Of a stretch of 64,000 nt of DNA, positions 5,964-32,438 are shown piece by piece. The DNA lies in the NCBI GenBank assembly GCA_033764955.1, contig JANRIL010000029.1:29878-93877 (forward strand), read 5' to 3'. Source of the DNA: Cyanobacteriota bacterium. GTDB lineage: Bacteria > Cyanobacteriota > Cyanobacteriia > Thermostichales > Thermostichaceae. The notes under the pieces are model-generated. The model worked only from the letters and a program-made list of their open reading frames with translations. It was not told the origin of the DNA and did not search any database. The translations under genes and the position numbers were made by a program. Position 1 is the stretch's first letter; every line of letters begins with the position of its first letter.

Positions 5964-6073
5964 CCAGTCTCTGGATTCTTTGAAGGGAGTGGGATCCCAA
6001 CCAATTGGTACCAGCTCCCTAACCGACTCAATAACCATGCACTCAATAACCGCATCAATAGAGGAGACCCATC

Positions 6074-6574
6074 ATGCCAGCCCATTCATCTCGCCATCAA
6101 CCCTTCTCCTGGTTAGCCTTGGGGCTACGCTGTTTGTGGCTGGTGGCGATGGTCGTTAGTTTGTTAGGAGGGGTAGGAATGGGGGCTGAGGCGATTGGAC
6201 TGGGGGATGACTTATCTGGCACTACCCCCTCCCAGTGGTGGCGGCAGGGGGACAAATCCTATCCCGTTGTGGAACTGAGCACTGACCGTGAGGCGGTGAC
6301 AGCCGTCGCCAACAGTGAGCAAAAAGTCTTTCAAATTCAGGTGCAAAGTACGGCGGACTTGCCACCGGATCCAGCTAACTATTTGGGATCCTATGCTGGA
6401 TTGGCTGCCGAGGTGGTGGGAATCGTGCCTTTACGGGGAAAAACCTTGCGCTACAGCGAGGGATCCCGTACCGCCGTCTGGACGGTCTATGGCATGAGTG
6501 GAAATTTTGTAGCTCAGGCTACCAGTTTGGATCTGGCTCCGCCTGAGCTGGTGACTTCTCCTGATCAGCCGTAG
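6074..6574 (+). CDS. hypothetical exported/membrane-anchored protein
   Basis: GAGGAG SD upstream; hydrophobic N-terminal segment. Confidence 0.6.
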   Translation: MPAHSSRHQPFSWLALGLRCLWLVAMVVSLLGGVGMGAEAIGLGDDLSGTTPSQWWRQGDKSYPVVELSTDREAVTAVANSEQKVFQIQVQSTADLPPDPANYLGSYAGLAAEVVGIVPLRGKTLRYSEGSRTAVWTVYGMSGNFVAQATSLDLAPPELVTSPDQP

Positions 6575-15888: not shown

Positions 15889-17736
15889 CTAGCCCGCTAC
15901 AGCCCAAACATTGCGCCATTTGACAGTTCCTGAAGCAGCCAATAACCAACGCCGACAAATGACCTCCTCATAAATTGGGGATTGACCCTCACGCAAAATC
16001 ACATATTTGTAAGCAATAAATTTCCCAGCACTTTCATGAAAAGGAATTTCGTTGAACCAGGTATTAGCATTAATATATTCAAGACGAAAGGCATGATTAA
16101 CATTCCAATTTCCCAACTCAGGGCAATCTCCAATGACTGCCACCACCTCTCCAGGATGGGTGACGTAACCATTGAGCTGGGCACGCACAATCATCTGCCC
16201 TTCTACACGATCTCCAATGTAGTTCAAGATGATCATTTCCTGCGAATTTAAGGAAAAGTTATATAATTTATGACCATGAACCATAAAGGATCGCCCCGTT
16301 AAAATACAGATATATTCCCCATCTTCAAGTTCACAATCAACTTGAGAAAGAGTAATAGGCTGACCCTTATTAAGCGCTACAAAACAACGCGAATCTCGGT
16401 AGGAACGAACATAACAATAAATGTCGGGAGTAATATATTTTTGATGATGAGCGCCCAACGATACGGCTGGATTGAGGCGGCGTAGCTTAGATAGTAAACG
16501 TAAATCTTGACAAATTTGGGTGTCGGGATCCCAATGCTCCATCATCGGTCGATTGTAGGGATCCATCCCTCCATTGGTATCATTATGCAGATATTGCTCG
16601 GTTCCATAATAAATACAAGGGATCCCGCGTGTTGTCATCAATAGTCCCACCGCCAACCGTAATCGCTGGGGATCGGGGTTGAGACTTTGAAAACGAGGCA
16701 TGTCGTGATTATCAATAAAGGTAACTAACTCGGTAGAGCTGTTGTAAAGATAATCAAGATCTAGGATGTTTTGAATGCGATAAAATCCAGCAGGATGGTT
16801 CTCTGCCAGAGCCGAACGGATCCCTTCACACAAACCAAAATCTAAAATGGACATGCCCGATTTGTTGGCAAAATTAACCGAGTGTGGATCTTGAGGCTTA
16901 CTGAACCCCCACTCACCAAAAGCAAAAACAGAGGGCTTATGGGTTTGAATATCCGTGTTAAACTCCTGCCAAAACCACAGATGCATGTGTTTAACTGTGT
17001 CAATTCGTAGGGCATCTACCCCTCGATCTAGCCAAGATTTGATGGCCGTTTTAATATAGTGACGAAATTCGGGATTGTTTTCATCAAAATCAGCAAGTCC
17101 CGCCATCTCACAGTTCACCAATTGCCATTGATCTTGCCAATCCGTAATTTCACCATTGTGATGATACCAATGATTCACATCGTTATAAAAATCCGCAATC
17201 AGTTCCCCATCATCATAGAGACGCCCTTTTTGCCCATTCACATCGGGGCTACTGTGATTACAAACAATATCTAAAATTAGCTTAAGACCCCGATCATGCA
17301 TTGACTGCACCAAAACATCAAATAGATTACAGCGTAGAACACAGTTATCCTGATGAAGAGGAACAAATCGAGGATTAATTCGCTTGAAATCTTTAGTCCA
17401 ATACCCATGCATAGCCGCATGGCCGAACTGTAGTTCTTCCACCTGTTCAAAGACAGGTGAAATCCAAATAGCCGTTACTCCAATTCGCTTGAGATAATCC
17501 AATTGATCAATTAAGCCCTGAATATCTCCACCCCAGTACTTCCCCCAATCCTGTCGATGAGGATCGTAAAGCTCAGGATTGGGTCCAGGATTATTGGAGG
17601 GATCCCCATCATGAAAACGATCAAGGATGACAAAATAGATTGTTTCTTGGCGAAATTCAATATCACGGGTGAATAAGAACTCCAGGGCTTGCGTTTCAGA
17701 TAAAGAAGTTTGAAAAAGCATATCTTGTGAATTCAT
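15889..17736 (-). CDS. GH13 alpha-amylase/CGTase-like enzyme with C-terminal CBM20
   Basis: DRFHDGDPSNN, GGDIQG, HGYW..DF, D.V.NHSSP, RIDTVKH (nucleophile Asp), FGEW, FIDNHDMPRF; CBM20-like GE.V.V.G.CPELGNW...YKYV. Confidence 0.92.
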   Translation of the reverse strand: MNSQDMLFQTSLSETQALEFLFTRDIEFRQETIYFVILDRFHDGDPSNNPGPNPELYDPHRQDWGKYWGGDIQGLIDQLDYLKRIGVTAIWISPVFEQVEELQFGHAAMHGYWTKDFKRINPRFVPLHQDNCVLRCNLFDVLVQSMHDRGLKLILDIVCNHSSPDVNGQKGRLYDDGELIADFYNDVNHWYHHNGEITDWQDQWQLVNCEMAGLADFDENNPEFRHYIKTAIKSWLDRGVDALRIDTVKHMHLWFWQEFNTDIQTHKPSVFAFGEWGFSKPQDPHSVNFANKSGMSILDFGLCEGIRSALAENHPAGFYRIQNILDLDYLYNSSTELVTFIDNHDMPRFQSLNPDPQRLRLAVGLLMTTRGIPCIYYGTEQYLHNDTNGGMDPYNRPMMEHWDPDTQICQDLRLLSKLRRLNPAVSLGAHHQKYITPDIYCYVRSYRDSRCFVALNKGQPITLSQVDCELEDGEYICILTGRSFMVHGHKLYNFSLNSQEMIILNYIGDRVEGQMIVRAQLNGYVTHPGEVVAVIGDCPELGNWNVNHAFRLEYINANTWFNEIPFHESAGKFIAYKYVILREGQSPIYEEVICRRWLLAASGTVKWRNVWAVAG

Positions 17737-17802
17737 GATATTTCCTATGATGATCTTGAGAAACTTGCTACTAATTATATGGATCCCGCTTCAGAAGACA
17801 AA

Positions 17803-19461
17803 CTATTGAGGATTTGGCAAATAATGTACAGCCAGCATGGTAATATCATCAAATTGTTCTGCTTCACCAATATGCTGTCTCACAGATGTATCAATCATAT
17901 CAAGTAATTGACTGGCAGAACCTATAGGTTGACTGACTAAACTGACTAATTGATGGCGAGTAAACAACTCATGATCAAGGTTATGGGCATCTGTTACCCC
18001 ATCCGTATAGGCTAATAAAATATCGCCCGGTTCCAACTGGATTTGCTCGATTTCAAAAGTTACTCCTGGTAATACCCCAAGAGCCGGTCCCGTTGCGTTC
18101 AGCCGCTCCTTAATTTCTCCAGAAGCGCTAATGTGAAACAAAGGTTCATGCCCCCCATTAATATAAAAAATTATGCCCGTGGCCGGATCTAAAATGCCAA
18201 AAAAGATAGTCGCAAACATATTTGATCGGCTATGAGTATTGGCAATATAATCATTCGTTAATGTCATGGCATTGACGAGGGCTTGGGTGCCAGCGGAGGG
18301 AAGTAGTCGCTTTCGCCTGCCTGCCGTTGAGGATCCACCAGGATGATCATCACTCAAGACATCCAGCAAGCTCAGAGAATAATTCTGTTGCGATAAACTG
18401 CGAATCAAGCTGCGAAATAGAGCCATAAATAGGGCGGCTCCCACTCCTTTGTCGCAGACATCAGCAATCACTAAACCGATTCGCCCTCGGGATAACTCAA
18501 AGACATCATAAAAGTCCCCAGCCACATTCCGAGCAGGGCTAAATCGAGCCGCCACTTCCCATCCTTCGGGATGGGGCAAACTTTCGGGTAAAAAATCTGA
18601 TTGAATCTGTCTAGCTATTTGGATATCTCGCTCATAGCGTAATAAGTCTTTTTCCATTAGGAGAGAGCGTTCTCGTTCTTCGTCTGCTTGCCGACGCTGG
18701 GTAATATCTTCTGTGATGGCAAATCCATGCAAGATCTCCCCCTCTGGATTCCTCCCTACAAAACCAATCACTTCTACCCAAATTGGACGACCATCTTTAT
18801 GAAGATACTGTTTCTCTAGAAAGAAGGAATCTCGCTTGCCAGACAATAGTTCACGATAATATAACTCGGTTTGTTGCCGATAATCAGGATGAGTAATCTC
18901 TTGAAAAGATTTTTGAATGAGTTCTGCTTCCGTGTATCCTACTAATCTTTCATAGGCAGGATTACAGCGCAAGATTTGAGCGTTTGAGCCTGTAATTGCA
19001 ATGCCAATGGGAGATTGCTGAAAAAGCAAGCGAAACCGCTGCTTCTCTTGCTGTAAATCCGCCTGAGCTTTGGCACGAATTTGACCCTCTATCAAAAGCT
19101 GATGATGAAGTTGATCTAAAGTTTTTTTGATATCTTCTTGAGAGCGCTTTAGATCGGTGATGTTAGCTGCATAAGCATCAATATTTAATGTGTCTGCGGA
19201 AGTGCTAAATGTAAAAAGATAGACGTTATCTTGGGTGAAGACCTCGAGATTAGGGAGGGCAGATCCAGTTTCAAGAGGTTGAAGAATTGACCTCAAAAAA
19301 TCTACGGGGCACCTTTCTCCAATAGTCGCTCCCCATGTTTGCAAAAGATGGTGTGCAGGCTGATTAGCATACAAAATAATCCCTTCCTTAGATATCTGTA
19401 ATGCTGGATCTGGATATCGAGCAAGACTAATCAACTCTGGGGAAATCAAAGATTCTGACAT
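17803..19461 (-). CDS. PAS-domain PP2C/SpoIIE (RsbU-like) Ser/Thr phosphatase
   Basis: PAS S-box (RLLFQQSPIGIA...NPA...GYT..EL...ITHPD) plus AGDFYD, DVCDKG, INGGH, YTDGVTD, DDITML. Confidence 0.92.
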   Translation of the reverse strand: MSESLISPELISLARYPDPALQISKEGIILYANQPAHHLLQTWGATIGERCPVDFLRSILQPLETGSALPNLEVFTQDNVYLFTFSTSADTLNIDAYAANITDLKRSQEDIKKTLDQLHHQLLIEGQIRAKAQADLQQEKQRFRLLFQQSPIGIAITGSNAQILRCNPAYERLVGYTEAELIQKSFQEITHPDYRQQTELYYRELLSGKRDSFFLEKQYLHKDGRPIWVEVIGFVGRNPEGEILHGFAITEDITQRRQADEERERSLLMEKDLLRYERDIQIARQIQSDFLPESLPHPEGWEVAARFSPARNVAGDFYDVFELSRGRIGLVIADVCDKGVGAALFMALFRSLIRSLSQQNYSLSLLDVLSDDHPGGSSTAGRRKRLLPSAGTQALVNAMTLTNDYIANTHSRSNMFATIFFGILDPATGIIFYINGGHEPLFHISASGEIKERLNATGPALGVLPGVTFEIEQIQLEPGDILLAYTDGVTDAHNLDHELFTRHQLVSLVSQPIGSASQLLDMIDTSVRQHIGEAEQFDDITMLAVHYLPNPQ

Positions 19462-19567
19462 GTGGGTTCTCGTTGCACGACACACTTTACTATTGGAATT
19501 GAGATGAGACGTCAATCTCAAACAAATTTACGGCTACGAACGAAAATATGCGGATTCAGTTCAGTGC

Positions 19568-20020
19568 TCAAGACGAAGTGGATAAAGACCTACGCTGCAT
19601 TCGAAAAATATTGCGATTGCGTTGATTAATGCGTTCATAGGCAAACTCATCTACACCTTCTATTGCTAAGTAAATTCCCAATCCGCCAATCGGTCGCTGA
19701 GCCAAAGGAATGTCAATAGTTTGTATTTCTTGTGGAACCGCCTGTCGGGGATCATAGGCAGCCCCTGTATCTTCAATCACGATGGTCAGATATCCTTCTG
19801 TCACGCTTGCTTCCAAATAAAGGGATCCCTGTGTATCTGTCTCTTCATAGGCGTGGGTAATGATGTTGGTGGCAATTTCGTCCACAGCCAGACGCAAATT
19901 ATAGATTGCCTTTTTATCAAGACCCGCGATGCTCCCAACCTGCTTAACAAAATCAGCAACATATTGAAGTGCCTCCAGGTTACCAGGAAGAGTTAATGAG
20001 TGTACGTTCTGCATGGGCAT
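19568..20020 (-). CDS. RsbW/SpoIIAB-like anti-sigma factor Ser kinase
   Basis: LAVDEIATNII.HAY N-box, IEDTG G1, GGLGIYL G2. Confidence 0.92.
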   Translation of the reverse strand: MPMQNVHSLTLPGNLEALQYVADFVKQVGSIAGLDKKAIYNLRLAVDEIATNIITHAYEETDTQGSLYLEASVTEGYLTIVIEDTGAAYDPRQAVPQEIQTIDIPLAQRPIGGLGIYLAIEGVDEFAYERINQRNRNIFRMQRRSLSTSS

Positions 20021-20208
20021 CGCTCCCGAAGTATAAGGATAATCTGATGAAACTAAATTGTGTAAAATTTATTTACTACTAAGCAATCATGTATGTTTGA
20101 TCTATAGGTTACTGGTAAATAGAATGTGCTGATATTAATCATTGCTAAAAATATAGAAGTTAACTAAACTTGTCAGGGTTGGATAGGCTTCTGAATCAAT
20201 TGTTTTCT

Positions 20209-22194
20209 CTAAAACCTCTCGAAAATCGAGTTATTTTGCTTAATGGCTAACATAGTAATGTCATCATATTGAGCAGTTTCCCCAATATAGGTTTTCAATT
20301 CTGCTAGGATCTTATCTAAAAGCTGACGAGCTGTTAGAGTTTCTGTTTGAACTAGAGCTTCTAGCCGTTTTCGTCCATATAGTTGCTTGGTTTGGTTACG
20401 GGCATCTGTGACACCATCGGTATAGCCCAACAGCAGATCTCCTGACATCATTTGTAGCTCCTTGATTTCAAATTTTGCTTCCTCACTGGAAAACATTCCT
20501 ACTGCTGGTCCAGTTGAATCTAGCTGAGTTTTTATTTGACCGTTCTTACCCAAAACAAATAAGGACTCATGACCACCATTAATGTAAACAATTTTGCCAG
20601 TTCCAACATCTAGGACGCCAAAGAAAAGAGTAGCAAACATTCCTGACTGACCATGATTATTAATGATATAGTCATTAGTTAGCTTTACTGTATTCAACAC
20701 AATGTTATGAATGGGACTCACTGAGGTATGACGAGTAGTGTCCTGACCTCCAGTTTTGCCCCCTCCATCCATCAATCGATCTAAAATTTGTAGAGGGTAA
20801 GTTCCTTTAGAAAAGGTGCGAATCAGTGTACAAAACAAAGCCATAAACATCGCCGCCGGAACTCCCTTGTCGGTTACATCTCCAATGACAATCGCATACA
20901 GATCATTGCGAATATGAAAGGTATCGTAGAAGTCTCCCGCTACTTCTCGCGCTGGTTGAAATGACGCCTCAAACTCCCAGCCCGTGAGGGTTGGTAATGT
21001 CTTGGGTAAAAACTGATTTTGAATGTCTCGTCCTTGCTGAAGTTCCGTTTGAGTCGAAGCTAATTTAACTTGTACTTTCAATAGTGTTTGCAACTGTTCT
21101 GCCATCTGATTAAATGAGTCCGCCAATAAACCAAGCTCATCTTTTCGAGTAACAGTTACACGGTAGCTCAAATTGCCGCGGGCAATATTTTGGGATCCCT
21201 CCACCAAACTAAGAATGGGCTTGACCAAATGACTTGCTAAGAGCGATGTGAGAAGGGTTAAAGCGAGCACGGCTATTATAGCGAGACTAACAGTAAACAA
21301 AGCTAACCAACGCATTCCGACTATAATTTCTTGAGCCTGTTGAAGAATAACCACTCCCCATCCCTGGGGAAGTGAAGTTGTAAAAGCCAGCCATGTCACA
21401 TGGGCATCATCCCGAAACTCGAATAGCCCTGTCTCCCCTTCCAGTAATCTTTTGACCGGTGGATAATCAGCTAGATTCTGATTCTTGCCAATGTCAGTGG
21501 GGCGTGGATCTAACAGGGTTATTCCCTGATTGTCAACTAATAAAATATGTCCACTGTTATCCCAATTAATTTCTCTCTGAAAGTTAGCGATTTCTTCTAG
21601 ACCGTTACAAACAATTAACCATTCAACCTCTTCTTGTGTTGGGATTAATGCTGCCGTGCTAGGGGGTGATATGGATTGTGGGTTTAGTAAAGTAGCTGAA
21701 CAAATATCTAGATTTGCAGTAGCGGCAATTAGAATGGGCTGAATGGTTGTATAGTTCCTGGCCGCTTTAGCAGACTGAATTAGGGTTTGAACCTGCTCGG
21801 TGGTTAGCGGAGAGTTAGGTTGGTTCGCAGCCTGCCCCTCAAGCATCACTGTGCCTGTGGAATCAACCTGCATGACTCTCACAATTGTTGGATAAACAGA
21901 TAGAAAATTTTGAATCGTTTGCTGGCGCTGCTCTCGATTCTCACCCCTTGACATAAACTGACGACTCAAGAGTGCGAGTTGTAAACGGTTTTGCTGATGC
22001 CAGTTTTCCAAATCTAGAACAAAGTCTTTGGCTTTCTCTTGGAAACGCTCCTGAGCTTCTTGCAAAAGTAGTCGTTCTGCCTGCCAAGTTAAAATTCCAA
22101 CCGGCACTAAAATTGCCGGGATCCCCAGCGCCAAGATCAACACTGTCAGACGATAGCGCAAAGAATAGAATCGCCCAGGTTGATGAGTTATCAT
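20209..22194 (-). CDS. membrane Cache-like/HAMP PP2C/SpoIIE phosphatase (IcfG-like architecture)
   Basis: two TM helices flanking a ~250-aa extracytoplasmic region, HAMP (KPI..L...IARGNL...DELG.LA.SFNQM), AGDFYD, DVTDKG, YTDGVTD, DDITML. Confidence 0.9.
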   Translation of the reverse strand: MITHQPGRFYSLRYRLTVLILALGIPAILVPVGILTWQAERLLLQEAQERFQEKAKDFVLDLENWHQQNRLQLALLSRQFMSRGENREQRQQTIQNFLSVYPTIVRVMQVDSTGTVMLEGQAANQPNSPLTTEQVQTLIQSAKAARNYTTIQPILIAATANLDICSATLLNPQSISPPSTAALIPTQEEVEWLIVCNGLEEIANFQREINWDNSGHILLVDNQGITLLDPRPTDIGKNQNLADYPPVKRLLEGETGLFEFRDDAHVTWLAFTTSLPQGWGVVILQQAQEIIVGMRWLALFTVSLAIIAVLALTLLTSLLASHLVKPILSLVEGSQNIARGNLSYRVTVTRKDELGLLADSFNQMAEQLQTLLKVQVKLASTQTELQQGRDIQNQFLPKTLPTLTGWEFEASFQPAREVAGDFYDTFHIRNDLYAIVIGDVTDKGVPAAMFMALFCTLIRTFSKGTYPLQILDRLMDGGGKTGGQDTTRHTSVSPIHNIVLNTVKLTNDYIINNHGQSGMFATLFFGVLDVGTGKIVYINGGHESLFVLGKNGQIKTQLDSTGPAVGMFSSEEAKFEIKELQMMSGDLLLGYTDGVTDARNQTKQLYGRKRLEALVQTETLTARQLLDKILAELKTYIGETAQYDDITMLAIKQNNSIFERF

Positions 22195-22225
22195 AAAAGT
22201 ATTAGGAAAAAGTATTAAAGAAAGA

Positions 22226-24208
22226 TTATCGTTTGCTATCGGAAGCTTGGGCTAACCAGCGCACGGCCAACATTGTAATGTCATCAAATTGATTAGCCGT
22301 ATCAATATAAGCCAGAACCTGCGATTCAATTCGTCCCAAAAGGCTGGCAGCAGAGTCTACGGGTTCATTTAATAAATCTAGTAAACGAGACTCTCGAAAG
22401 AAAGCTTTATTAGGGCTGCGTGCTTCTGTTACCCCATCGGTATAGGCTAAAAAAATATCCCCAGGCTGCAACTGAATATTGAGAATTTCGTACTTTTCGC
22501 GGGGCAGAAATCCTACGGCGGCTCCCGATGGGGCAAGGCGAGCTTTGATCTTTTGCTGATGATCTAAAATAATAGGCGGTTCATGTCCCCCATTGATGTA
22601 GGTGAGTAAGCCAGTTTCGGGATCCAAAACCCCAAAAAACAGCGTGGCAAACATATTAGCATTGCTGTGGTTATGCACAATATAATCATTGGCTAGCGAG
22701 ACTGCTTTGAGAGGAGCAGTATAACTAAGCTCTGCCAACTGGGCTTGGAAGCCGGAGTCACTCATTTGTGGCAAATTATCAGAACTGGCAATCGTTCGGA
22801 GGGCTAATAAATAGGATTGCTCAGCAAACACCCGGATCAAACTGCGAAATAAAGCCATAAATAAAGAGGATCCTACCCCTTTATCAGAAACATCCCCCAC
22901 CACTAAGCCAATACAATCCCCTGGCAAAGGGAAGATATCGTAAAAATCTCCGGCCACATCACGAGCGGGACGAAAGCAGGTGGCAAATTCCCAATTTTTC
23001 CGCTCTGGCAAATCCTGTGGTAAAAACTCTTTCTGAATTTGTGTGCCAATTTCCAGTTCCTTTCGTAGGGCACGCAAATAACTTTCTGCTGTATTCTTGG
23101 CCTGTAACAACTCAATCTCGGCTTGCTGACGGCGAGTAATGTCATGCAGTACAACCAGATAGCCAGCCAGTCGATTATAGTCATCCCGCAGCGCGGCCAA
23201 ATGCATCTCATAGTGATGGGGATGCTCATCCCGATCAAAAGTCCAGATGGGTAATGTTTTATAAGTATCTGCTTTGGTTAATAAAGAGGTATTGGTAATT
23301 AAACGGTATTGCTCTAATAAATCAGGTTGATTAATAAATAGAGCTGAAATAGCTTCTCCAACTATCTCTGATTTTTGCCGATTGAGAATACGCACCCCAG
23401 ATGGATTGACATCCATAATCCGGTGCTGCCTATCTAAAACGATGATCCCATCACCAAGACTTTTGACCACGGAGTCATAAACAATTGGGATAATATCAAC
23501 TGATGGATCAACTAAAAAAGTTAGGGTAACAGCCGGCCCAATCTGGAAAATATCTCCGTTTTGCAGAGATTTTTGCTTGATTCTCTGCCCTTGATATAAA
23601 AGCCCATTCGCACTGTCAAGATCAATAATTTCGTAACCCTCTTCCGTCCTCTGAATTTGGGCATGACGAGCTGAAACTATTGGTAAATCAATGCTGATAT
23701 CACAGGCGGGATCCCGACCCACTGTGATCACGATTCCCTTTAGCGGGAAATTGTGAACATCTTGGGGAGTTGTTACTCGTAATGCGGATAAAGGTTCATC
23801 ATTAAGCTGAATAGTCTGATATCCAATGTTATTGGCAACATTGGTTGCTCCAGGATCCAAAATCATCTCGGTGGATTCTAGATCCTCTGTCAGCAAATCA
23901 TTGTGAAAACATAGGTTAAAGGAACCAATAGAAATAATGTCTTGATCTGTTAGGGAAAGAGCCTGACCGGGAGCAATCCGAACTTTATTGACCTGAGTTC
24001 CGGTTTTGCTGTGCAGATCGGTAATTAAATATTGGTTTTGTTCCCATACCAAGCGGGCATGATAGCGAGACACCTCCGGGGCGTCCAAAACCAGTTGGTT
24101 GTTGAGGGCACGACCAATCGTAACTTCGCAGGTTGCTTGATCAAGTAGCAAGCTCTGTTGCTCTTTGCCATCCGAATAGAGGATCAAACAGGCTACGGAT
24201 TTGGGCAT
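22226..24208 (-). CDS. FHA-FHA-PAS-PP2C/SpoIIE phosphatase
   Basis: two FHA motifs (IGR...VSRYHA; VGR...VSARHA...SANG), PAS (DGIIVLD....I.DVNP), AGDFYD, DVSDKG, YTDGVTE, DDITML. Confidence 0.9.
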   Translation of the reverse strand: MPKSVACLILYSDGKEQQSLLLDQATCEVTIGRALNNQLVLDAPEVSRYHARLVWEQNQYLITDLHSKTGTQVNKVRIAPGQALSLTDQDIISIGSFNLCFHNDLLTEDLESTEMILDPGATNVANNIGYQTIQLNDEPLSALRVTTPQDVHNFPLKGIVITVGRDPACDISIDLPIVSARHAQIQRTEEGYEIIDLDSANGLLYQGQRIKQKSLQNGDIFQIGPAVTLTFLVDPSVDIIPIVYDSVVKSLGDGIIVLDRQHRIMDVNPSGVRILNRQKSEIVGEAISALFINQPDLLEQYRLITNTSLLTKADTYKTLPIWTFDRDEHPHHYEMHLAALRDDYNRLAGYLVVLHDITRRQQAEIELLQAKNTAESYLRALRKELEIGTQIQKEFLPQDLPERKNWEFATCFRPARDVAGDFYDIFPLPGDCIGLVVGDVSDKGVGSSLFMALFRSLIRVFAEQSYLLALRTIASSDNLPQMSDSGFQAQLAELSYTAPLKAVSLANDYIVHNHSNANMFATLFFGVLDPETGLLTYINGGHEPPIILDHQQKIKARLAPSGAAVGFLPREKYEILNIQLQPGDIFLAYTDGVTEARSPNKAFFRESRLLDLLNEPVDSAASLLGRIESQVLAYIDTANQFDDITMLAVRWLAQASDSKR

Positions 24209-24287
24209 GGGTGTTAGGAGGTGAGTGAGCAGGGATCCCTAAACAGGTGGGGAGGAGGATCGGAGCCGATGTTGCCCCTCCGCTATG

Positions 24288-24719
24288 CTAAGCGGGATCC
24301 CGATAGACAACAAAAATATTCCGGTTGCGATTGCCCTCCCGTTCATAAATAAACCGATTTACCCCTTGGATGGCTAAATATACCCCCAAGCCGCCAATGG
24401 GTCGATCCGCCAGCGGTTTGAGGATCGTCTCTTCCTCAGTCGCAATCGCTCGACTCGGGTCGTAGGTAATTCCAGTGTCCTCAAGATGAATGGTCAGACT
24501 TTTGGCATCCAGAATTGCGGCGATCTCAATATTGCCTTCGCAGCCTGCCTCAGCATAGCCGTGGGTGATGATGTTGGTGGCAATTTCATCCACCGCCAGC
24601 CGCAAACGGTAAGTAGCTCGTGAATCCAACCCAGCCTCCTGAGCGGCCATCTTAATATAGTCAGCAATGGGATCCAGAGCGTCTAGCGTACCGGGCAAAA
24701 CCAAGGCTTCCATAGCCAT
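24288..24719 (-). CDS. RsbW/SpoIIAB-like anti-sigma factor Ser kinase (paralog of 19568-20020)
   Basis: LAVDEIATNIITHGY, LEDTG, RPIGGLGVYL; start 24719 or 24713. Confidence 0.92.
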   Translation of the reverse strand: MAMEALVLPGTLDALDPIADYIKMAAQEAGLDSRATYRLRLAVDEIATNIITHGYAEAGCEGNIEIAAILDAKSLTIHLEDTGITYDPSRAIATEEETILKPLADRPIGGLGVYLAIQGVNRFIYEREGNRNRNIFVVYRDPA

Positions 24720-24848
24720 AGCCTCAAAATCCAAGGAAAGAAGGCAAGGGTTCGGTCATTCCATCCACAGGGGGGATTGGTCTGGGGTTGAGAAAAACCG
24801 CCATTGCTTGAAACGCAACCTCAGCCCCCCAGACTGCTCCGCTCGATT

Positions 24849-25163
24849 TCAATAGCTATCAGCGAGGATGACGCTGCGATCAAATCCCGTTTTGGAAAGA
24901 GTTTCTAACACCCCTTCTTGGGCACCCACCACATAAATATCAACGTCACTGCCCATTTTTTGTTTGGCAAAGATCAAGACTCGCAATCCGGCACTCGCCA
25001 TATATTCTAAGTTGGCCATCAACAACACTAATCGCTTGGGTTGGTGGGTAGCAGCTTGCTCCACTGAGTCTTTGAAGGTGTTGGCCGAAGCGGCATCCAA
25101 CTCACCTGTGAGGGTAATGAGAGCGGCATCGTCTTTAACTTCTAAGCTGCTGGTAAAAGCCAT
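24849..25163 (-). CDS. STAS anti-sigma factor antagonist (RsbV/SpoIIAA-like)
   Basis: GELDAASA...LEYMASAGLRVL with phosphoacceptor Ser; AGGAG SD. Confidence 0.93.
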   Translation of the reverse strand: MAFTSSLEVKDDAALITLTGELDAASANTFKDSVEQAATHQPKRLVLLMANLEYMASAGLRVLIFAKQKMGSDVDIYVVGAQEGVLETLSKTGFDRSVILADSY

Positions 25164-25236
25164 GATCACGATCTCCTAAAAGAAAAGATTGCTTGAATGT
25201 GTCCGATTTCCCTCGAGATTACCTAGGAAAATCGTG

Positions 25237-27354
25237 CTAGCGCCCCACTAAGATGGCCACGGCACGACCTCCCAACAGGAGGGTATTTTGATCGGAGAGA
25301 GGCGGTTCCTCCCCCACCCCCCAAATGTCATCGGGATAGTTGACGCTGGTATTGGCAACGATATGCCATTGCACCCCCTCAGGCAGACGGGGCAACTGAA
25401 AGGGTAGAGCATCCCAATAGACGTTAAGCGCTACATAGATAAAGTCATCGTTGGCGGATCCCTCCTTGGCGTGTTTGCCAGAGAGCATAAAAGCGATGAC
25501 CCGACTGCCTTCTGACCAATCGGCGTTCCATGCCTGTGTGCCATGCCAAGTGATATCGGCATAGCCTGTGTTCATGTAGTCCACATTACGGAAGTGTTCT
25601 CGATTTCTGAGGATGGGGTGAGCTTTGCGAAAAGCAATACAACGACTAAAGAATCGGAACAGCTCAGGATTTTCGGCCAGCAAATGCCAATTTAACCAGT
25701 TCAATTCGTTATCGTGGCAGTAGGTGTTATTGTTGCCTTGCTGGGTTCTTCCCACTTCATCTCCCATCAAAATCATGGGAACTCCCTGGCTGACCATTAG
25801 CATGGCTACGGCGTTTTTGATCTGGCGTCTTCGCAAAGTTTGAATACCCTGATCTTCGGTTGGTCCCTCCCAGCCACAGTTCCAACTGTGATTATCATTG
25901 CCCCCGTCGTTGTTATTTTCTCCGTTGGCTTCGTTGTGCTTGCTGTTGTAGGAAACCAAGTCCATCAAGGTGAAGCCATCATGACAAGTAATAAAGTTGA
26001 CGGAAGCTGTGGTTCCCCGTCCCCGATAGAGATCAGGGGATCCCTGAAGCCGTTGCCCCACATCCCCGATCCGTCCAGTATCCCCTTTCAAAAAGCGGCG
26101 TATCCCGTCTCGATATTTGCCGTTCCACTCCGCCCAGCGCCCGTAGGCGGGAAAGGATCCCACTTGATAAAGACCCCCCGCATCCCAGGCTTCGGCAATC
26201 AATTTGCACTTGGACAAAACCGGATCAAAAGCCAAGGCTTCCAGCAGGGGTGGATTGGCCAGCGGATACCCCAACGGATCCCGACCCAAAATCGAGGCCA
26301 AATCAAAACGGAACCCATCAATGTGATATTCGGAAGCCCAATAGCGCAAACATTCGATCACCATGCTGCGGACAATCGGATTGTTGCAGTTGAGGGTGTT
26401 GCCACAGCCACTGAAATTAAAGTAGTACCCCTCGGGAGTAAGCATGTAATAGGTTTGGTTGTCAATACCCCGATAGGAAATAGTCGGGCCATATTCATTG
26501 CCTTCGGCGGTATGGTTAAAAACCACATCCAAAATGACCTCAATACCATTTTGATGCAGATCTTTGATCAAATTTTTCAGCTCATCCACCTGCATCCCCA
26601 GCTTTCCGGTGGCGGCATATCCGGCTTTGGGGGCAAAGAAACCAACGGTACTGTAGCCCCAATAGTTAAGCAATTGTTCTCCCGTTGTGGGATGCAAACG
26701 ACTATTCTCAAATTCATCAAATTCGTAGATGGGCATTAACTCAATGCAGTTCACTCCCAGTTCTTTAAGATAGGGAATTTTTTCACGGATCCCTGCATAA
26801 GTTCCCGGATGTTTTACCCCGGCAGAGGGGTGACGGGTAAAGCTACGGACATGCATCTCATAGATAATCAGATCCTCCATCGGTAACTCTAATGGACGAT
26901 CTTCTTCCCAGTCAAAATCCTCCAAAACTAGGCGGGCGCGATGCTGGTAGCTATCCTGCCAATTGGGGGTAACACCCCAGATATCCCGTCCGCCGATTAC
27001 CCTAGCGTAGGGATCCATCAAAATTTTACTGGCATCAAACCGTAGTCCTCGCCCTGGGTCAAAGGGGCCATCCATGCGGTAGCCATACTCCAGCGTCTCG
27101 ACATCTAGATCGAAGACGACCATGGTAAAAACGCTGCCGATGCGGAACTGATCGAGGAAGGGAATTTCGACAAATGGCTCCGATTCGTGCTTATTGAATA
27201 ACACCAACTTGCAGGATTGAGCCGCGCAGGAAAAGATCGAGAAATTGACCCCTCCTGGTACTAATGTGGCTCCAAAGGGAAATGGTTTGCCCGAACGCAA
27301 CCGATAGCCTTTGTAGGTGTGGGTGGGATAAAAATCAATCCGTTGCGCTTCCAT
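25237..27354 (-). CDS. glgX: glycogen debranching enzyme / isoamylase GlgX
   Basis: PFGAT...GVNFS, IIYEMHVRSFT, NYWGYST.GFFAP, DVVFNHTAEG, DGFRFDLAS, AEAWD, NFITCHDGFTL.DLVSY. Confidence 0.96.
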   Translation of the reverse strand: MEAQRIDFYPTHTYKGYRLRSGKPFPFGATLVPGGVNFSIFSCAAQSCKLVLFNKHESEPFVEIPFLDQFRIGSVFTMVVFDLDVETLEYGYRMDGPFDPGRGLRFDASKILMDPYARVIGGRDIWGVTPNWQDSYQHRARLVLEDFDWEEDRPLELPMEDLIIYEMHVRSFTRHPSAGVKHPGTYAGIREKIPYLKELGVNCIELMPIYEFDEFENSRLHPTTGEQLLNYWGYSTVGFFAPKAGYAATGKLGMQVDELKNLIKDLHQNGIEVILDVVFNHTAEGNEYGPTISYRGIDNQTYYMLTPEGYYFNFSGCGNTLNCNNPIVRSMVIECLRYWASEYHIDGFRFDLASILGRDPLGYPLANPPLLEALAFDPVLSKCKLIAEAWDAGGLYQVGSFPAYGRWAEWNGKYRDGIRRFLKGDTGRIGDVGQRLQGSPDLYRGRGTTASVNFITCHDGFTLMDLVSYNSKHNEANGENNNDGGNDNHSWNCGWEGPTEDQGIQTLRRRQIKNAVAMLMVSQGVPMILMGDEVGRTQQGNNNTYCHDNELNWLNWHLLAENPELFRFFSRCIAFRKAHPILRNREHFRNVDYMNTGYADITWHGTQAWNADWSEGSRVIAFMLSGKHAKEGSANDDFIYVALNVYWDALPFQLPRLPEGVQWHIVANTSVNYPDDIWGVGEEPPLSDQNTLLLGGRAVAILVGR

Positions 27355-27516
27355 GCTTAGCCCTCATCGCCGATGACCAATCCTCAATCAACTTGTAGAG
27401 CCAGAATAGGGGGTGACCTATTCCAGGCGGGATCCCTTGCGAAGGGCTGGCGTTACCTTAAACGAGAGTAAGGTAGGCGGCTCGCACCCATCTGGGGGGG
27501 ATCCCCACAGGCTAGC

Positions 27517-27852
27517 CTAACTCTGGAGAGCCGCTAGCCCTGAGTCTACGGTGTCGCTGATGGTAAAAAACTTTAGGAATCCCGTTACCGACATGGTGTC
27601 TTTGATATCTTCCGACAGCCCAACCAGGGCAATCTGACCGTTATTACTGGTCATTTGTCGGTAGAGCAGCAGCAGCACCCGCAAGCCAGCACTGGACATA
27701 TAGGTGACGTGGGTCATGTCCAACAGCATCTTGCCCCCTGCTTGGGTGAGGGGAACAATCTTTTCCTGTGCCATGGGAGCCGTTTTGCCGTCAATTTCTC
27801 CCTCTAGCTCGACTAAGGTGACTTGATCGACTGTTTTGACTCTGACATCCAT
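27517..27852 (-). CDS. STAS anti-sigma factor antagonist (RsbV/SpoIIAA-like)
   Basis: GEIDGKTAP...VTYMSSAGLRVLL...TGF; AGGAG SD. Confidence 0.93.
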   Translation of the reverse strand: MDVRVKTVDQVTLVELEGEIDGKTAPMAQEKIVPLTQAGGKMLLDMTHVTYMSSAGLRVLLLLYRQMTSNNGQIALVGLSEDIKDTMSVTGFLKFFTISDTVDSGLAALQS

Positions 27853-27921
27853 GACACTTCTCCTGCTGTTTCTGATCGGCTCACGGGTGAGGTTGGGGAT
27901 CCCTAAAGCTGGGCTTGCCGC

Positions 27922-29739
27922 CTAGTCTACTGGCTCAATCCGTACCTTTACTTTAATGGAGTCTTTGGCATCTGGCAGTTGTACCGTCAGCCCTGCCGCA
28001 TCAAAGTTGTGGTAGGGATCCCCATCGATAGTGACGGATTCTAGACGGATGCTGCCGGGGGGCAAGATATCCGGCTGCACCCGCAACACCCGATCCTTGA
28101 AGCCATTGGGATGGGGCTTAAAGTGGAAGTCCATCGGCTGCTTGGTAATCAAGAGGTTGGTATAGACAGAGGCCAAATAGCACAACTCGGTGGAGTGATA
28201 GCCGCTCATGGAGTGACTGCCCTTCAGCCGTTCGGTGCCCAAGAGGTAGGGGATCCCGTTGGCCAAGACGTTAAAGTAAACCGCTCCATCTTGATGATCG
28301 AGGAAGAAGGCATTGTAGAAGGCCGCCGCTTCCCGACCGTGACGGCGGTATTCATCCTTTTTCAGGCAGCCTGCCAAGATCAAGTAGGCAAGGATAGCTT
28401 GTTCCTGCTGCCACCAGGCTTTGCGATCGTGCCAGGCATGGCGATAGCATTTCTGCCCTGGGGCGAGTTCCCGCTCCATCACGTCATACCAGCCCCCCCG
28501 CTGTTGATCACTCCCTACAGCAGGCATGATCTCGGCAATTTTTTCCGCCAAGTTGACGTAGAGATCTTTGGGCTTGAGGCTCTGCATCCGCATTAAATTC
28601 CAGGCAATTTTCAGGTTGTGCCCCACGACCGCCCGGTTTTGCTGCCAGCCCCACGTTTGATCTTTTGACCAGTCATCAAAGAATTTTTCCTGGACAAATG
28701 GGCTGTGATCGTAGTCAGGAAAATGGGTGGCAATCGTGTCGAACGTATATTCCAAAAAGTCGGCGTATTTGGGATCCCCTGTGGCTAGCCACAGGTTAAT
28801 CAGATAGGCAGGGGCGTGATCTCCCACGGAGTTCCAATTTTTGCGGGCTTTGTTGCGTCCCAAGGATTCCGCATGGGGATCCAGGGTGATCGGGTCAATG
28901 TGGGAATAGTAGCCACCCTTTTCTTTGTCTAGGAAAAAGTTATCAAACAGCTTGACCGTTAATTCGGCATCCCGCAGGATACGCGGATCCCCGGTCACTC
29001 GATAAGTTTGGATGGGGCCTGCCAAAGCATAAATTTGTTCATAGGCTGGAATGGCATCATAGTCATCTCCAAACTCGGAGGCAAATACTTTAGTTTCGCG
29101 CCGACCACTCACATCAATGCCGTGATACCAGTAGACAATTTCTTCGTCAGGATCATAGAAACGCATGTGATCCCGCAAATATTCTGTGCCTTTTTCTGCT
29201 GCATCCAAAAAGCGATCATCACCTGTCATCAAATAAGAGCTAGCAAAGCCATAGACTAGCCGTGAAATTGTGTCAGTTTCTTGACGGTGATCCCCCTTTT
29301 TCTCGCCGGTTAGAGCCAGAATGGTTCGATAATTCGTGTAGTCAACGGGTTGATCTTGAAACTGGGCGTGTAGATAAAAATCGGCGATTTGAGCCACTTG
29401 ATCGACCCACCAGTTGGGCTTCTCAAAGCGATAGTCTGTATCAGTGCGACCTAAAAAGACAAGGTGTTTAATATCAAATTGATATCCCGCCGGCTCTGGA
29501 TAAAAAACTCCATAGGCAAAAAGATAACGACCTGGTGTCAGCATTTGCCGCATCTGGCCAGTACAGTCCTGATAAGGTTCCCCTAGGTTATGTGCCAATT
29601 CCGCATAAGCATTGGCCGAGAAGTGCAGTTTGAAGTCCCGTCCATCGCTGGTTTTGACGGTGACCGCATCCTGTTCAGGATCAAACTGGGTCACATAACC
29701 CGCAACCAAATCGGAAAATGAAAATTGAATGTCATTCAT
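27922..29739 (-). CDS. AGE (N-acylglucosamine 2-epimerase) family epimerase/isomerase
   Basis: SRLVYGF, D...GGY, GHNLKIAW, WWQQEQ, GYHSTE resemble (alpha/alpha)6 AGE motifs; extra N- and C-terminal domains. Confidence 0.85.
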   Translation of the reverse strand: MNDIQFSFSDLVAGYVTQFDPEQDAVTVKTSDGRDFKLHFSANAYAELAHNLGEPYQDCTGQMRQMLTPGRYLFAYGVFYPEPAGYQFDIKHLVFLGRTDTDYRFEKPNWWVDQVAQIADFYLHAQFQDQPVDYTNYRTILALTGEKKGDHRQETDTISRLVYGFASSYLMTGDDRFLDAAEKGTEYLRDHMRFYDPDEEIVYWYHGIDVSGRRETKVFASEFGDDYDAIPAYEQIYALAGPIQTYRVTGDPRILRDAELTVKLFDNFFLDKEKGGYYSHIDPITLDPHAESLGRNKARKNWNSVGDHAPAYLINLWLATGDPKYADFLEYTFDTIATHFPDYDHSPFVQEKFFDDWSKDQTWGWQQNRAVVGHNLKIAWNLMRMQSLKPKDLYVNLAEKIAEIMPAVGSDQQRGGWYDVMERELAPGQKCYRHAWHDRKAWWQQEQAILAYLILAGCLKKDEYRRHGREAAAFYNAFFLDHQDGAVYFNVLANGIPYLLGTERLKGSHSMSGYHSTELCYLASVYTNLLITKQPMDFHFKPHPNGFKDRVLRVQPDILPPGSIRLESVTIDGDPYHNFDAAGLTVQLPDAKDSIKVKVRIEPVD

Positions 29740-29924
29740 GAGTCATTTCTCTCGGAGTAATGAACGGCAAGCTACGGTCTAGATGGGGACAAAAAAGTAG
29801 GATAGTTACAGGTTAAGTACAATCGGCCAAGGGCAAATCAACGGCTGATGATCTCTGATGATTAAATTAGGATCCTTCACATCAGTCAGGGAACAATAAC
29901 CACGCAAAGCTCAAGATAATTGCT

Positions 29925-30497
29925 CTACTTTTTCTTCTCCAGGATATCAATAATCTGACGAGCAAAAAGATGACAGTGATTCCCCGTACGACCCGTTACC
30001 AAATCACCATCCACCACCACATCTTTATCTGTATAAATAGCTCCCATATTGATCACATCTCCATGGAGATTATTGTGACAAGTGACGGGGCGACCTTTGA
30101 CCAATTCGGGAGCGGGAGAAACCAGCCACATTCCATGACAAATAATCCCCTTCAAAATGCTTTTTTCTGCGAAAGCACGCTTCAGAAATTCGGTGGCAGG
30201 AGAAAGTTTACTGACATCCTCGGTATAGCGGAGTCGATCCGATACCATCGCGGAAGGAACGATAATAGCCGCAAAACTCTTGAGGGTTTCATCATCCATA
30301 TTCTCAAAACTTTCATGACACTCAAACGGCGCATGATATTCATGTCCCTTAAAGGTTAAATAGGATTGCCCCCACAAACGAGTTAGAAAATGCAGATCAG
30401 CCCCTTCTTCAGGAAATCGGTAGTGATAATACCAAATTTCATGCTCGTAGAAATCACTTTCCAGCAGAATGCCTATTTTTTTACCTTTTAGCTTCAT
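29925..30497 (-). CDS. DJ-1/PfpI family protein
   Basis: KKIGILLE.DF.EHE (Glu), ICHG nucleophile elbow, D.DVVVDGDLVTGR. Confidence 0.92.
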   Translation of the reverse strand: MKLKGKKIGILLESDFYEHEIWYYHYRFPEEGADLHFLTRLWGQSYLTFKGHEYHAPFECHESFENMDDETLKSFAAIIVPSAMVSDRLRYTEDVSKLSPATEFLKRAFAEKSILKGIICHGMWLVSPAPELVKGRPVTCHNNLHGDVINMGAIYTDKDVVVDGDLVTGRTGNHCHLFARQIIDILEKKK

Positions 30498-30650
30498 GTG
30501 TCAAGGGATCCCAAATATTTTGTGGATAATGCTGCAAAGTTGAAGATGATGCCAACAACCGACTTGAGGAAGTGACCGGGGAGTTAGCTGCTAACCCCCC
30601 TAAATAACCTGCTTTTTGCACGCCAGTCTATGATTCTTGACTACCAACAA

Positions 30651-31175
30651 CTACTTAGGCTGACTCGCCGCATGAAGAGTAATCTTCTCCAGATAACTAA
30701 GATCCCAGCCCCGCGCCTTAAACTCAGAAGTTGCATTTTCCAGTAGTCCAAACGCATCCACAAATCCGACCTGTTTTCCAGATTCGTCAAGCTGAATCAA
30801 TGGACCCATCACATGAAACAGAGTAATCATGGTTTCATCACCTAAGATTTCTAGGGTGTGACTATCCCCAGCCGGCTCATAGACAAAAGCCCCTGGCTCA
30901 GCTACCCAATCATACTCTTTGTATTTCCACCGTCCTTGCAGGCAATACCCGACAACTGGAGCTGTGTGATGGTGGAGTGCTAACCCTGCTCCAGGTTCAC
31001 ACTTTAATAGTGTGGCAAAGGAGTTATTGACCAGATTAAACATCAAGAATTTGTTGGAAGTTCCATTCTCGTAAGGAAGCCAAAACCCATCCTCTGCTAA
31101 AATGGCATACCCATCAAAATAGTTGTTCTTCTTAAAGAAGAATTCAGCAGCGTGTGTGCTATAAGTGCCGCTCAT
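30651..31175 (-). CDS. cupin, 2,4'-dihydroxyacetophenone dioxygenase/ChrR-like
   Basis: HHHTAPV.GY.LQGRWKY.E.DW.A..G.FVYEP.G..HTL; GAGAGG SD before ATG at 31175. Confidence 0.8.
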   Translation of the reverse strand: MSGTYSTHAAEFFFKKNNYFDGYAILAEDGFWLPYENGTSNKFLMFNLVNNSFATLLKCEPGAGLALHHHTAPVVGYCLQGRWKYKEYDWVAEPGAFVYEPAGDSHTLEILGDETMITLFHVMGPLIQLDESGKQVGFVDAFGLLENATSEFKARGWDLSYLEKITLHAASQPK

Positions 31176-31343
31176 GGTTCTCAACCTCTCTTGTCGTGAG
31201 TTGTCGTAAAGTACCTTGCAAATCCTGTAATGATGCCCAGATTTTAATGAGGTCTGGGCTGCTCTCAATCTTTTTCAACAGGGTGATTTAAGAGTACTGT
31301 GCGTAGCTACGCTCCGTATCGAGCATAGTTATCCTGATAAAAG

Positions 31344-32438
31344 TTAGCTGGATAATCCTAGTTTTTGTCTAAGCAAATCAGCAATTTCATCATAGCCAAA
31401 TTTGATCGCCATATCGAGGGGAGTATTGCCATCATGACCAATCAAATCCAGTTTAGGGATCCCAGATTCGATCAATATCTTGGCTGCTTTGAGACTGCCT
31501 TGCCAAAGACTATCATGCAATGCTGTATATCCATTGTATGGACCTTGGGCATCTACAACTTCAGCAAAATCCTTGTGCTGAGCTAACACCTCTACCACAT
31601 CGGCATGTTGCATATAGCAAGATTTATGGATAGGAGTAGCTAACATAAAAGCATCCACAGCATGTAGGTCAGCTCCCGCTTCTAGAAGCATTTTGACAAC
31701 CTCCGTTTGCCCCATCGTCGCGGCAAATAGAAGGGGAGTTTGCCCATCAAAAGCAGTACTCTCAATCGGTGAGGGAACATTTACATCCTCTCCGGCTGCG
31801 ATCAACTGGCGGACTGTTTCAATCTGTTCTTCGGCAGTCAACTTGCCATCAAAATTGCCAATGGCCGCATAGATTTTTTGAGCCGATTTTTTGGCGGCGA
31901 GTCGCTGATCATAAGCATCAAACAAGGCGGTCATCTGCTTAATTTGCTCAGCTCGCAACGGATTAGTGGTCGCAATGGTAGTGGTATCTACACCAAAGGT
32001 AATCAACTCACGGGGGCTAAAACGAATGTCGGCGTTGATATAAGGACTAATACTCTCCTGCTCTAGCAAAAAAGCCACCATATCCACTTGGCGATACCAG
32101 ACTGCACTCCAGAGAGCAGTCATCCCATTGGTATGGCATTGTAAGTTGATGGGGGCTCCTGCTTTTAACAAAGTGGCGGCCACGCCCACATTGCCTCCCT
32201 GGGCGGCTAAATGCAGTGCAGAGATACCGATTACATTGTCCAAAATATTGACATCGGCTCCCCGTTCTAAGAGTAAATTAACGATATCCAATAGTCCCAA
32301 GCCAGAAGCCGCCATGAGAGGGGTTCGTCCCCCACTGTTCTTCTGATCGGGATCCGTCCCCGCATCCAAAAGAGCTTGAACTTGAGCAACATCTTTAGAC
32401 CAGACAGCCTCATGTAAAGGAGGTTGGGTTAGATTCAT
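31344..32438 (-). CDS. ankyrin repeat protein
   Basis: repeated G.TPL..A...G...IV.LLL..GAD.N units (about 7-8). Confidence 0.93.
   Translation of the reverse strand: MNLTQPPLHEAVWSKDVAQVQALLDAGTDPDQKNSGGRTPLMAASGLGLLDIVNLLLERGADVNILDNVIGISALHLAAQGGNVGVAATLLKAGAPINLQCHTNGMTALWSAVWYRQVDMVAFLLEQESISPYINADIRFSPRELITFGVDTTTIATTNPLRAEQIKQMTALFDAYDQRLAAKKSAQKIYAAIGNFDGKLTAEEQIETVRQLIAAGEDVNVPSPIESTAFDGQTPLLFAATMGQTEVVKMLLEAGADLHAVDAFMLATPIHKSCYMQHADVVEVLAQHKDFAEVVDAQGPYNGYTALHDSLWQGSLKAAKILIESGIPKLDLIGHDGNTPLDMAIKFGYDEIADLLRQKLGLSS

Follow-up and report, generated by a model that had tools for sequence, protein, structure and literature searches.

A block of 13 genes in a 64,000-nucleotide stretch of cyanobacterial DNA (family Thermostichaceae; contig JANRIL010000029.1, positions 29,878 to 93,877; hereafter the window) is an enlarged form of the icfG cluster, and comparison with its relatives suggests that, within an icfG-type phosphorylation switch, one of the cluster's two STAS proteins, STAS2, serves the adjacent AGE-like enzyme as a regulatory subunit, a reading to which we give a probability of about one half. 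The icfG cluster itself, linked to carbon metabolism since the 1990s, is already known; what is new is the enlarged form. Direct control of the neighbouring sugar-isomerase-like enzyme by STAS2 is likely, judging from the protein fusions described below, and if true it would mean that a partner switch directly controls a metabolic enzyme across about 11 phyla, for which there are few precedents (SiaC–SiaD). The valuable part is this testable claim; the enlargement matters less, although it shows that sensor modules are interchangeable and stackable. The comparative pattern also offers a cheap test in a model organism, namely whether Slr1859 switches Slr1855 and whether GlgX2 needs a partner.

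The core of the cluster (genes for DJ-1, an AGE-like enzyme, STAS1, GlgX, STAS2, an RsbW-like kinase and a PP2C phosphatase) is the icfG cluster, as matched to the accessible sections of PMC8670252 and PMC12329169, and the original prediction of an expanded icfG-like core is confirmed by gene order and by the kinase and phosphatase subfamilies. The icfG cluster of Synechocystis sp. PCC 6803 (slr1852–slr1862) has the same core genes in the same order, two STAS subfamilies and a cluster-type kinase, its members including AGE-like Slr1855, Slr1856, Slr1857 (GlgX2), Slr1859, IcfG (Slr1860) and Slr1861. It has one kinase and one phosphatase, whereas the window has two and three, with FHA-FHA-PAS and PAS inputs; in addition, ankyrin and cupin genes upstream replace the CMD/EthD-type genes of Synechocystis, and a GH13/CBM20 gene is added at the tail. 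The two kinases are 41–63% identical to kinases of other icfG clusters, and the three phosphatase domains are 43–51% identical to each other compared with 23–32% to the other SpoIIE proteins of the genome, and all three belong to the IcfG subfamily. The membrane Cache/HAMP-PP2C is not an addition but has the IcfG-type architecture, sharing it with the 634-residue phosphatase of locus L104, whose kinase fits the residue numbering published for Slr1861. Since the order AGE-like enzyme, STAS, GlgX, STAS is present together with Slr1861-type kinases and IcfG-subfamily phosphatases in one locus, but in numbers of two and three rather than one each, the locus is a variant of the icfG-type cluster.

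Scanning for relatives of the AGE-like protein confirmed at least 597, of which the best 80 (64–72% identical) were used as loci; these we take to span about 11 phyla, judged by record title. Among the best 80, the order AGE-STAS1-GlgX-STAS2 is kept in 57 of the 61 loci whose downstream flank reaches 6 kb or more, and 53 of those 57 hold both kinase and phosphatase, so the core genes are indeed conserved together. A DJ-1/PfpI gene was found in 68 of the 80. The phosphatase N-terminus is swapped freely among loci (GAF, PAS, receiver, cNMP, Cache-HAMP, FHA or a fused kinase in 49 of 65 scanned), and the genes upstream vary, being mostly small redox or carbonyl enzymes (CMD, ABM, glyoxalase, GMC oxidoreductase, ThiJ-like, EthD, SnoaL and thiamine enzymes). 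Kinase and phosphatase form a single fused protein in L035, L046, L063, L075 and L052, with a cNMP domain in L035 and receiver and GAF domains in L052.

The evidence for the role of STAS2 comes from fusions. A wider search found STAS fused to an AGE-like enzyme in 83 protein clusters at 90% identity; all fusion clusters bearing an organism name are cyanobacterial, and in the Atlas STAS is carried by 21% of an AGE cluster whose commonest phylum is Actinomycetota. The fused domain is of the STAS2 type (59–119 bits to STAS2 compared with 33–46 to STAS1 by blast), and the linker is nearly fixed: of 68 measured, 57 have 18 residues, and all lie between 17 and 20. These proteins belong to a second architecture, shown by 12 fetched loci (8 out of 35 in a phylum sample), in which GlgX is followed by the AGE::STAS fusion. 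STAS1, RsbW and PP2C genes are absent from all 12, two of which are short contigs, and no orthologue of STAS1 or of the cluster kinase was found in any of five fusion genomes tested (at least 99% complete), where the best matches were 23–30% identical. The phospho-serine, present in 96 of 96 free STAS2 proteins (some loci being duplicated), is kept in only 4 of the 12 fused domains taken from loci, and in 44 of 83 proteins carrying the fusion. Asp or Glu occupies the site in 4 of the 12, which could mimic a phosphate, although a helix-cap preference explains it equally well. The FxKQK motif stays (Lys71 0.98, Lys69 0.87), as does Tyr79 (0.95). Because the fused STAS2 keeps FxKQK and Tyr79, relaxes the phospho-serine and persists where the switch genes are gone, STAS2 would have a job beside the AGE-like enzyme that needs no kinase.

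STAS1 and STAS2 are distinct conserved subfamilies, and the basic FxKQK motif is specific to STAS2. Reciprocal losses occur: L099 (genome G223) has AGE and STAS2 without STAS1 or cluster-type GlgX, and L137 (G362) has STAS1 and GlgX without AGE or STAS2. When the natural fusion P0008 was folded from a 78-row alignment, the predicted template-modelling score (pTM) was 0.80, compared with 0.90 for the AGE-like enzyme alone and about 0.75 estimated by simple scaling for a free-floating domain. The original suggestion that the STAS proteins may act directly on the enzymes they flank gains comparative support in part: the fusions that lost the switch point to the AGE-like enzyme and STAS2, and not to GlgX. 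Side products of the fusion search include a tandem STAS2-STAS2 protein of ~230 residues (L007:14438-15139; P0001). GlgX::STAS2 (P0002), a sigma-54 fragment fused to STAS2 (P0003) and CBM48 with STAS1 (P0011) were set aside as single sequences, and P0002 and P0003 resemble products of a frameshift or of read-through.

The AGE-like enzyme was modelled with AlphaFold at a mean predicted local distance difference test score of 86 and pTM 0.90, and the model predicts an N-terminal beta domain, an (alpha/alpha)6 barrel at residues ~98–535 and a C-terminal beta domain. Among solved structures the fold comes nearest to mannose isomerase, the cellobiose and glucose 2-epimerases and YihS, with 13–19% identity and the terminal domains barely covered (5x32, Z 32.7, root-mean-square deviation 2.8 over 375 aligned residues; 5zig, Z 30.4, 3.0 over 378). 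Membership of the AGE superfamily is indicated by the barrel and by His374 and His515, which align with the two catalytic histidines (for their roles, see the accessible sections of PMC5726027). The enzyme differs from the known members in its extra beta domains and in an invariant Lys377, which stands where cellobiose epimerase has Glu; other site residues differ too, the third histidine position is offset (Asp307/His308), and scores of 22–27 bits fall short of the AGE and cellobiose 2-epimerase equivalog cut-offs of 600–800. The plain prediction from fold and residues is that the enzyme isomerises or epimerises reducing-end sugars. Literature searches found no characterised member of this subfamily, no title on the function of slr1855, only unrelated titles for STAS-epimerase fusions, and nothing on the combination of enzyme and switch, most subscription journals lying outside the search.

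GlgX exceeds the TIGR02100 equivalog cut-off (712.5 against 640.9 bits) and, unlike in Synechocystis, is the only isoamylase/GlgX found in the assembly. According to the accessible part of 10.1101/2022.11.21.517384, Slr1857 (GlgX2) is inactive alone in vitro and its deletion has no phenotype. In the GlgX of fusion loci (L033, L034, L085, L089–L093, L095–L097), GFRFDE[AG]S replaces GFRFDLAS after the nucleophile. This fusion-type GlgX is the only one in the complete genome G185 (G185:C1:3910717), and G001 has none at E 1e-40. The last gene of the block is closest to the three-domain cyclodextrin glucanotransferase 6wni (E 1e-117). The Atlas contains a 51-member cluster of DJ-1::AGE fusions (797 residues), and a DJ-1::ThiJ-like fusion adjoins a divergent AGE gene in L098 (9951-11627), associations that would tie DJ-1 to the AGE reaction.

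In the proposed mechanism, the phosphate state of STAS1 and STAS2 would depend on the two kinases and the three sensor phosphatases, and STAS2, docking on the AGE-like enzyme through its FxKQK face, would gate, at the protein level, a glucan-to-sugar-carbonyl pathway. Malto-oligosaccharides would be released by GlgX and the GH13/CBM20 enzyme, the AGE-like enzyme would isomerise or epimerise their reducing end, and DJ-1 would handle the carbonyl product. STAS1 would be the reversible arm, its dephosphorylated form holding the kinase and lowering STAS2 phosphorylation. The three phosphatases would act as an OR gate, responding to a ligand from outside, a PAS signal in the cytoplasm and phospho-threonine, and kinase cross-talk to Ssr1600/SigC would be a probable second output. 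Published observations on Synechocystis fit a special role for STAS2: growth is impaired by deletion of slr1859 and not of slr1856, and IcfG dephosphorylates Slr1856, the STAS1 orthologue, and not Slr1859 (accessible part of 10.1101/2024.02.22.581593, citing primary work). The accessible published text also has both STAS proteins carrying phosphate in vivo, to a greater extent in the dark and early in resuscitation. A more extended scheme, which we regard as unlikely, has the icfG cluster encode a previously undescribed glucan-catabolic enzyme complex under partner-switch control, in which the AGE-like enzyme and GlgX2 are silent until STAS subunits dock; such a dependence would account for the lack of activity of GlgX2 on its own. 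Its chemistry, in which released alpha-glucan chains are isomerised at the reducing end by the AGE-like enzyme, or undergo elimination there, and a reactive dicarbonyl results, is doubtful to the same degree. The odds are also against its last part, by which DJ-1 and the variable accessory enzymes would process the dicarbonyl, AGE::STAS2 lineages would be constitutive and the present genome, with three sensors, would be the opposite extreme.

Several observations weigh against control of the AGE-like enzyme by STAS2 or against the pathway built on it. GlgX proteins from fusion loci group in a single clade (support 1.0), apart from those of switch loci, so the fusions may represent one or two events; STAS2 is also fused to a kinase (P0154, P0160, P0172); AGE loci without any STAS exist (L079, L094, L098); and, on the GlgX side, L080 has cluster-type GlgX without STAS1, with G145 and G211 showing the reverse. 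We infer the glucan pathway from gene neighbours only. Six genomes matched the kinase and not AGE, and five of these keep switch genes with intact motifs: STAS1, kinase and PP2C in G145 and G211; STAS2, kinase and PP2C in G255 and likewise in G396, where STAS2 lies 29 kb away; and kinase, Cache-PP2C, STAS1 and GlgX in G362. The sixth, G149, was matched in the kinase search alone. These genomes are drafts of 80–350 contigs, and the absence of AGE comes from one search without a positive control, another over the same genomes having given 35 positives. The switch can evidently persist without the enzyme, as these gene sets suggest, and the remaining switch genes may be relics, may reflect assembly gaps, or may serve an output that does not involve the enzyme, for example Ssr1600 or a sigma factor. 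Finally, Slr1861 pulls down and phosphorylates Ssr1600 in vitro (Kurkela et al. 2025, accessible sections of PMC12329169).

That last finding makes a sigma factor the main rival target, or a second output. On this account, possible but in our estimate well short of even odds, the kinases would be anti-sigma factors for SigC, acting directly or via Ssr1600, both STAS proteins would be antagonists and the sugar enzymes co-transcribed cargo. The same sections of PMC12329169 propose Slr1861 as an anti-SigC factor and report that lowering Ssr1600 lowers RNA polymerase–SigC, and the original statement that icfG has no established output is to that extent out of date; they also call the targets of Slr1856 and Slr1859 unknown, and the Slr1861–SigC complex they describe is an AlphaFold model. 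The present genome likewise holds Slr1861-type kinases, an Ssr1600-like STAS (C44:158722; residues agree with the numbering of PMC12329169), a PmgA-like kinase and several group-2 sigma genes, and the five genomes that keep switch genes without AGE suit this account as well. The STAS of this cascade is encoded elsewhere, however, and most cyanobacteria bearing Ssr1600 are without the cluster kinase: among 183 cyanobacterial genomes (30 listed families), 182 have an Ssr1600-like protein, 27 the cluster kinase (at least two more, G030 and G344, by profile) and 31 AGE. SigC control via Ssr1600 therefore cannot depend on the cluster kinase in most cyanobacteria, and is probably not the cluster's general job. 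Cluster order is kept in phyla outside the cyanobacteria, where to our knowledge SigC is not present, and a sigma output leaves unexplained the persistence of the AGE::STAS2 fusion where kinase, phosphatase and STAS1 have been lost. The absence of a sigma factor from the cassette, noted originally, extends to the whole contig (C40), all 13 sigma-70 region 2 matches lying elsewhere in the genome; it is not diagnostic, being normal for the cluster, since a sigma-like open reading frame occurs in 1 of the 80 loci, on the opposite strand, in a search that matched 11 of 13 positive controls.

The original division into two kinase/STAS pairs would correspond to two insulated channels, RsbW1 with one STAS protein and RsbW2 with the other, each controlling the flanked enzyme (STAS1-GlgX, STAS2-AGE). 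The distinctness of the two STAS subfamilies, the reciprocal losses in G223 and G362 and the presence of two kinases are compatible with such a layout, which we nevertheless consider improbable. Nearly all other loci have a single kinase for both STAS genes; the sole Synechocystis kinase, Slr1861, phosphorylates both Slr1856 and Slr1859 (accessible sections of PMC12329169); both kinases of the window fall in one clade together with family relatives (support 0.92); and no recurring STAS1::GlgX fusion was found in the fusion search. Insulated pairs are not supported. The remaining rival holds that the enlargement is a recent and redundant mosaic, two RsbW-PP2C modules and an IcfG-type phosphatase stacked by transfer or duplication, the extras having no integrated function. 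Its rarity (1 of 30 cluster-kinase genomes), the sister relationships of the two modules to single pairs in L083 and L042 and the low G+C at third codon positions (GC3) of the five downstream genes are what such a history would leave, but redundancy is unlikely in our judgement: the five signalling genes are full length with motifs intact despite 43–55% mutual identity, no transposase, tRNA or flanking repeat was found at the locus (repeat and tRNA scans showed paralogy only), and low GC3 can also mean low expression.

By ancestry the enlargement is a mosaic, put together from sensor modules found one at a time in relatives. RsbW1 and the FHA-FHA-PAS phosphatase each have their sister in the one kinase/phosphatase pair of L083 (G006, same family), where the same FHA-FHA-PAS-PP2C architecture lies directly behind RsbW, and the sisters of RsbW2 and of the PAS phosphatase are likewise the one pair of L042 (supports 0.90, 1.0, 0.81 and 0.98); the PAS-PP2C catalytic domain is 68% identical to its L042 counterpart, whose N-terminus is unrelated. 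The Cache/HAMP phosphatase groups with membrane phosphatases of 629–657 residues, for example that of L104 (0.96, to which long branches may contribute). In this FastTree phylogeny of 84 domains, from which 15 near-duplicate loci were left out, the three phosphatases are not each other's closest relatives, and recent in-place duplication was rejected. GC3 is 0.36–0.40 in the five downstream genes, the lowest 3–7% of 1253 long reading frames, and 0.51–0.62 from AGE through RsbW1. The recurrence proposed originally was found for the additions and not for the whole: GH13/CBM20 recurs in five cyanobacterial loci (L043, L045, L079, L105, L117), ankyrin in two and cupin in one, each singly, but the three-phosphatase/two-kinase form was found neither in the 80 genome loci and the 35 phylum-sample loci nor in 30 genomes from the order and 50 mostly short metagenome loci. 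G000, the source genome, is the only one with two cluster-type kinases among 30 having any, and within the order such a kinase occurs in 4 of 30 genomes. Partial look-alikes are L005 and L007, with two phosphatase genes of which one is in pieces, and L035 and L063, with two; in L046 a second kinase and an extra STAS score weakly (30–43 bits) and belong to another subfamily. As far as searched, the enlargement is specific to this genome, a one-genome curiosity.

Among characterised partner switches, SiaABCD of Pseudomonas aeruginosa offers a precedent for the proposed control of the AGE-like enzyme: in the accessible published text, a kinase/phosphatase pair sets the phosphate state of the STAS-like SiaC, which activates the enzyme SiaD rather than freeing a sigma factor. 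The target there is a diguanylate cyclase, and a single SiaC is phosphorylated on Thr68. SiaA was the top NCBIfam match of the Cache/HAMP phosphatase (53.6 bits against a cut-off of 700), no Sia cut-off was reached and no GGDEF gene was found by Pfam among the 13 genes, and by analogy the window cluster would work similarly but is not a member. The Bacillus switches RsbU/V/W-SigB and SpoIIE/AA/AB-SigF use the same three protein families; the cluster in the window differs from them in having no linked sigma gene and in its kinases, which lie far under the RsbW and SpoIIAB equivalog cut-offs. The Bacillus-type STAS consensus has Asp just before the phospho-serine, where the window motifs have Ser or Ala.

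The 13 reading frames are uninterrupted, all on the minus strand at 15889-32438 with intergenic gaps of 31–188 nt, and their order and labels are as originally described, Pfam supporting every label except that Cache scores under its cut-off (25.6 against 45 bits). Likely start corrections, made from ribosome-binding sites and relatives, are included in Table 1; STAS2 residues are numbered from a GTG start at 25169.

Table 1. Genes of the icfG-type cluster in the window, in 5' to 3' order on the minus strand.
Gene product	Coordinates	Strand	Basis and remarks
Ankyrin-repeat protein, 364 residues, accessory	31344..32438	-	Pfam Ank; relatives beside cluster in L073, L092
ChrR-type cupin, ~174 residues, accessory	30651..31175 (longest reading frame starts 31268; likely start 31175)	-	Pfam Cupin_7
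DJ-1/PfpI (glyoxalase III/deglycase family), Glu and Cys-His motifs, near-core	29925..30497	-	Pfam, motifs
AGE-superfamily enzyme (Slr1855-like), 605 residues	27922..29739	-	Pfam GlcNAc 2-epimerase (weak, 59.6 bits), fold, fusions
STAS1 (Slr1856-like), phosphoacceptor Ser54, YMSSAGL	27517..27852	-	Pfam STAS, motif
GlgX, isoamylase type (Slr1857/GlgX2-like clade), catalytic motifs intact	25237..27354	-	CBM48+GH13, TIGR02100
STAS2 (Slr1859-like), phosphoacceptor Ser59, YMASAGL and FAKQKMG	24849..25163 (likely start 25163)	-	Pfam STAS
RsbW-like kinase 1 (Slr1861 type)	24288..24713 (likely start 24713)	-	Pfam HATPase_c_2; sister to L083 kinase
FHA-FHA-PAS-PP2C phosphatase	22226..24208	-	Pfam FHA-FHA-PAS-SpoIIE
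Transmembrane-Cache-like-transmembrane-HAMP-PP2C phosphatase, IcfG-type architecture	20209..22194	-	Pfam HAMP-SpoIIE
RsbW-like kinase 2	19568..20020	-	HATPase_c_2; 55% identical to kinase 1; sister to L042 kinase
PAS-PP2C phosphatase	17803..19461 (longest reading frame starts 19521; likely start 19461)	-	Pfam PAS-SpoIIE
GH13+CBM20, cyclodextrin glucanotransferase/alpha-amylase type, motifs intact, accessory	15889..17736	-	Pfam; 6wni

Inspection of the motifs agrees with the original description of them as intact: the GHKL kinase motifs (DEIATN, EDTG and GGLG in both kinases), the STAS phospho-serines and the PP2C metal motifs (AGDFYD, DVxDKG, YTDGV and DDIT in all three phosphatases) are all preserved. 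FHA2 has GR, SxxH and NG, and FHA1 shows SKTG where the FHA consensus is S-x-N-G; the 23 Hanks kinases of the genome could supply phospho-threonine for these domains. The Cache-like domain lies between two hydrophobic segments, one near residue 16 and the other near residue 297. The ankyrin protein has full-length relatives adjoining the cluster in L073 (37% identical) and L092, and the cupin has a single relative of 174 residues (40% identical) adjoining the cluster in L052. A scan for promoter and terminator patterns across the cluster gave counts equal to chance. The block lies between a transglutaminase-like gene and an NYN gene and has a G+C content of 41–52%, compared with 51–58% for most of the remaining window.

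Elsewhere in the assembly (3.8 Mb, 89% complete) there are two more short RsbW-like kinases, five more STAS matches and ten more SpoIIE matches. A separate, unrelated pair of PP2C and RsbW-like kinase is arranged divergently in L131 (G000:C4:34422-36353), and two group-2-like sigma genes lie side by side and converging in L132 (328-2687, G000:C34). Within the window, a fusion of the trehalose synthase-maltokinase type (GH13 and Mak_N_cap, 1152 residues; 51844-55299, plus strand) is an alpha-glucan gene 19 kb from the cluster, and four reading frames of 166–464 residues at 3851-6571 and 60276-61667 have no Pfam match at E 1e-5. In L121 (5284-9392; G315) the AGE gene is split by two inserted reading frames, resolvase- and transposase-like by sequence; the remaining cluster genes of that genome are elsewhere and its GlgX is broken.

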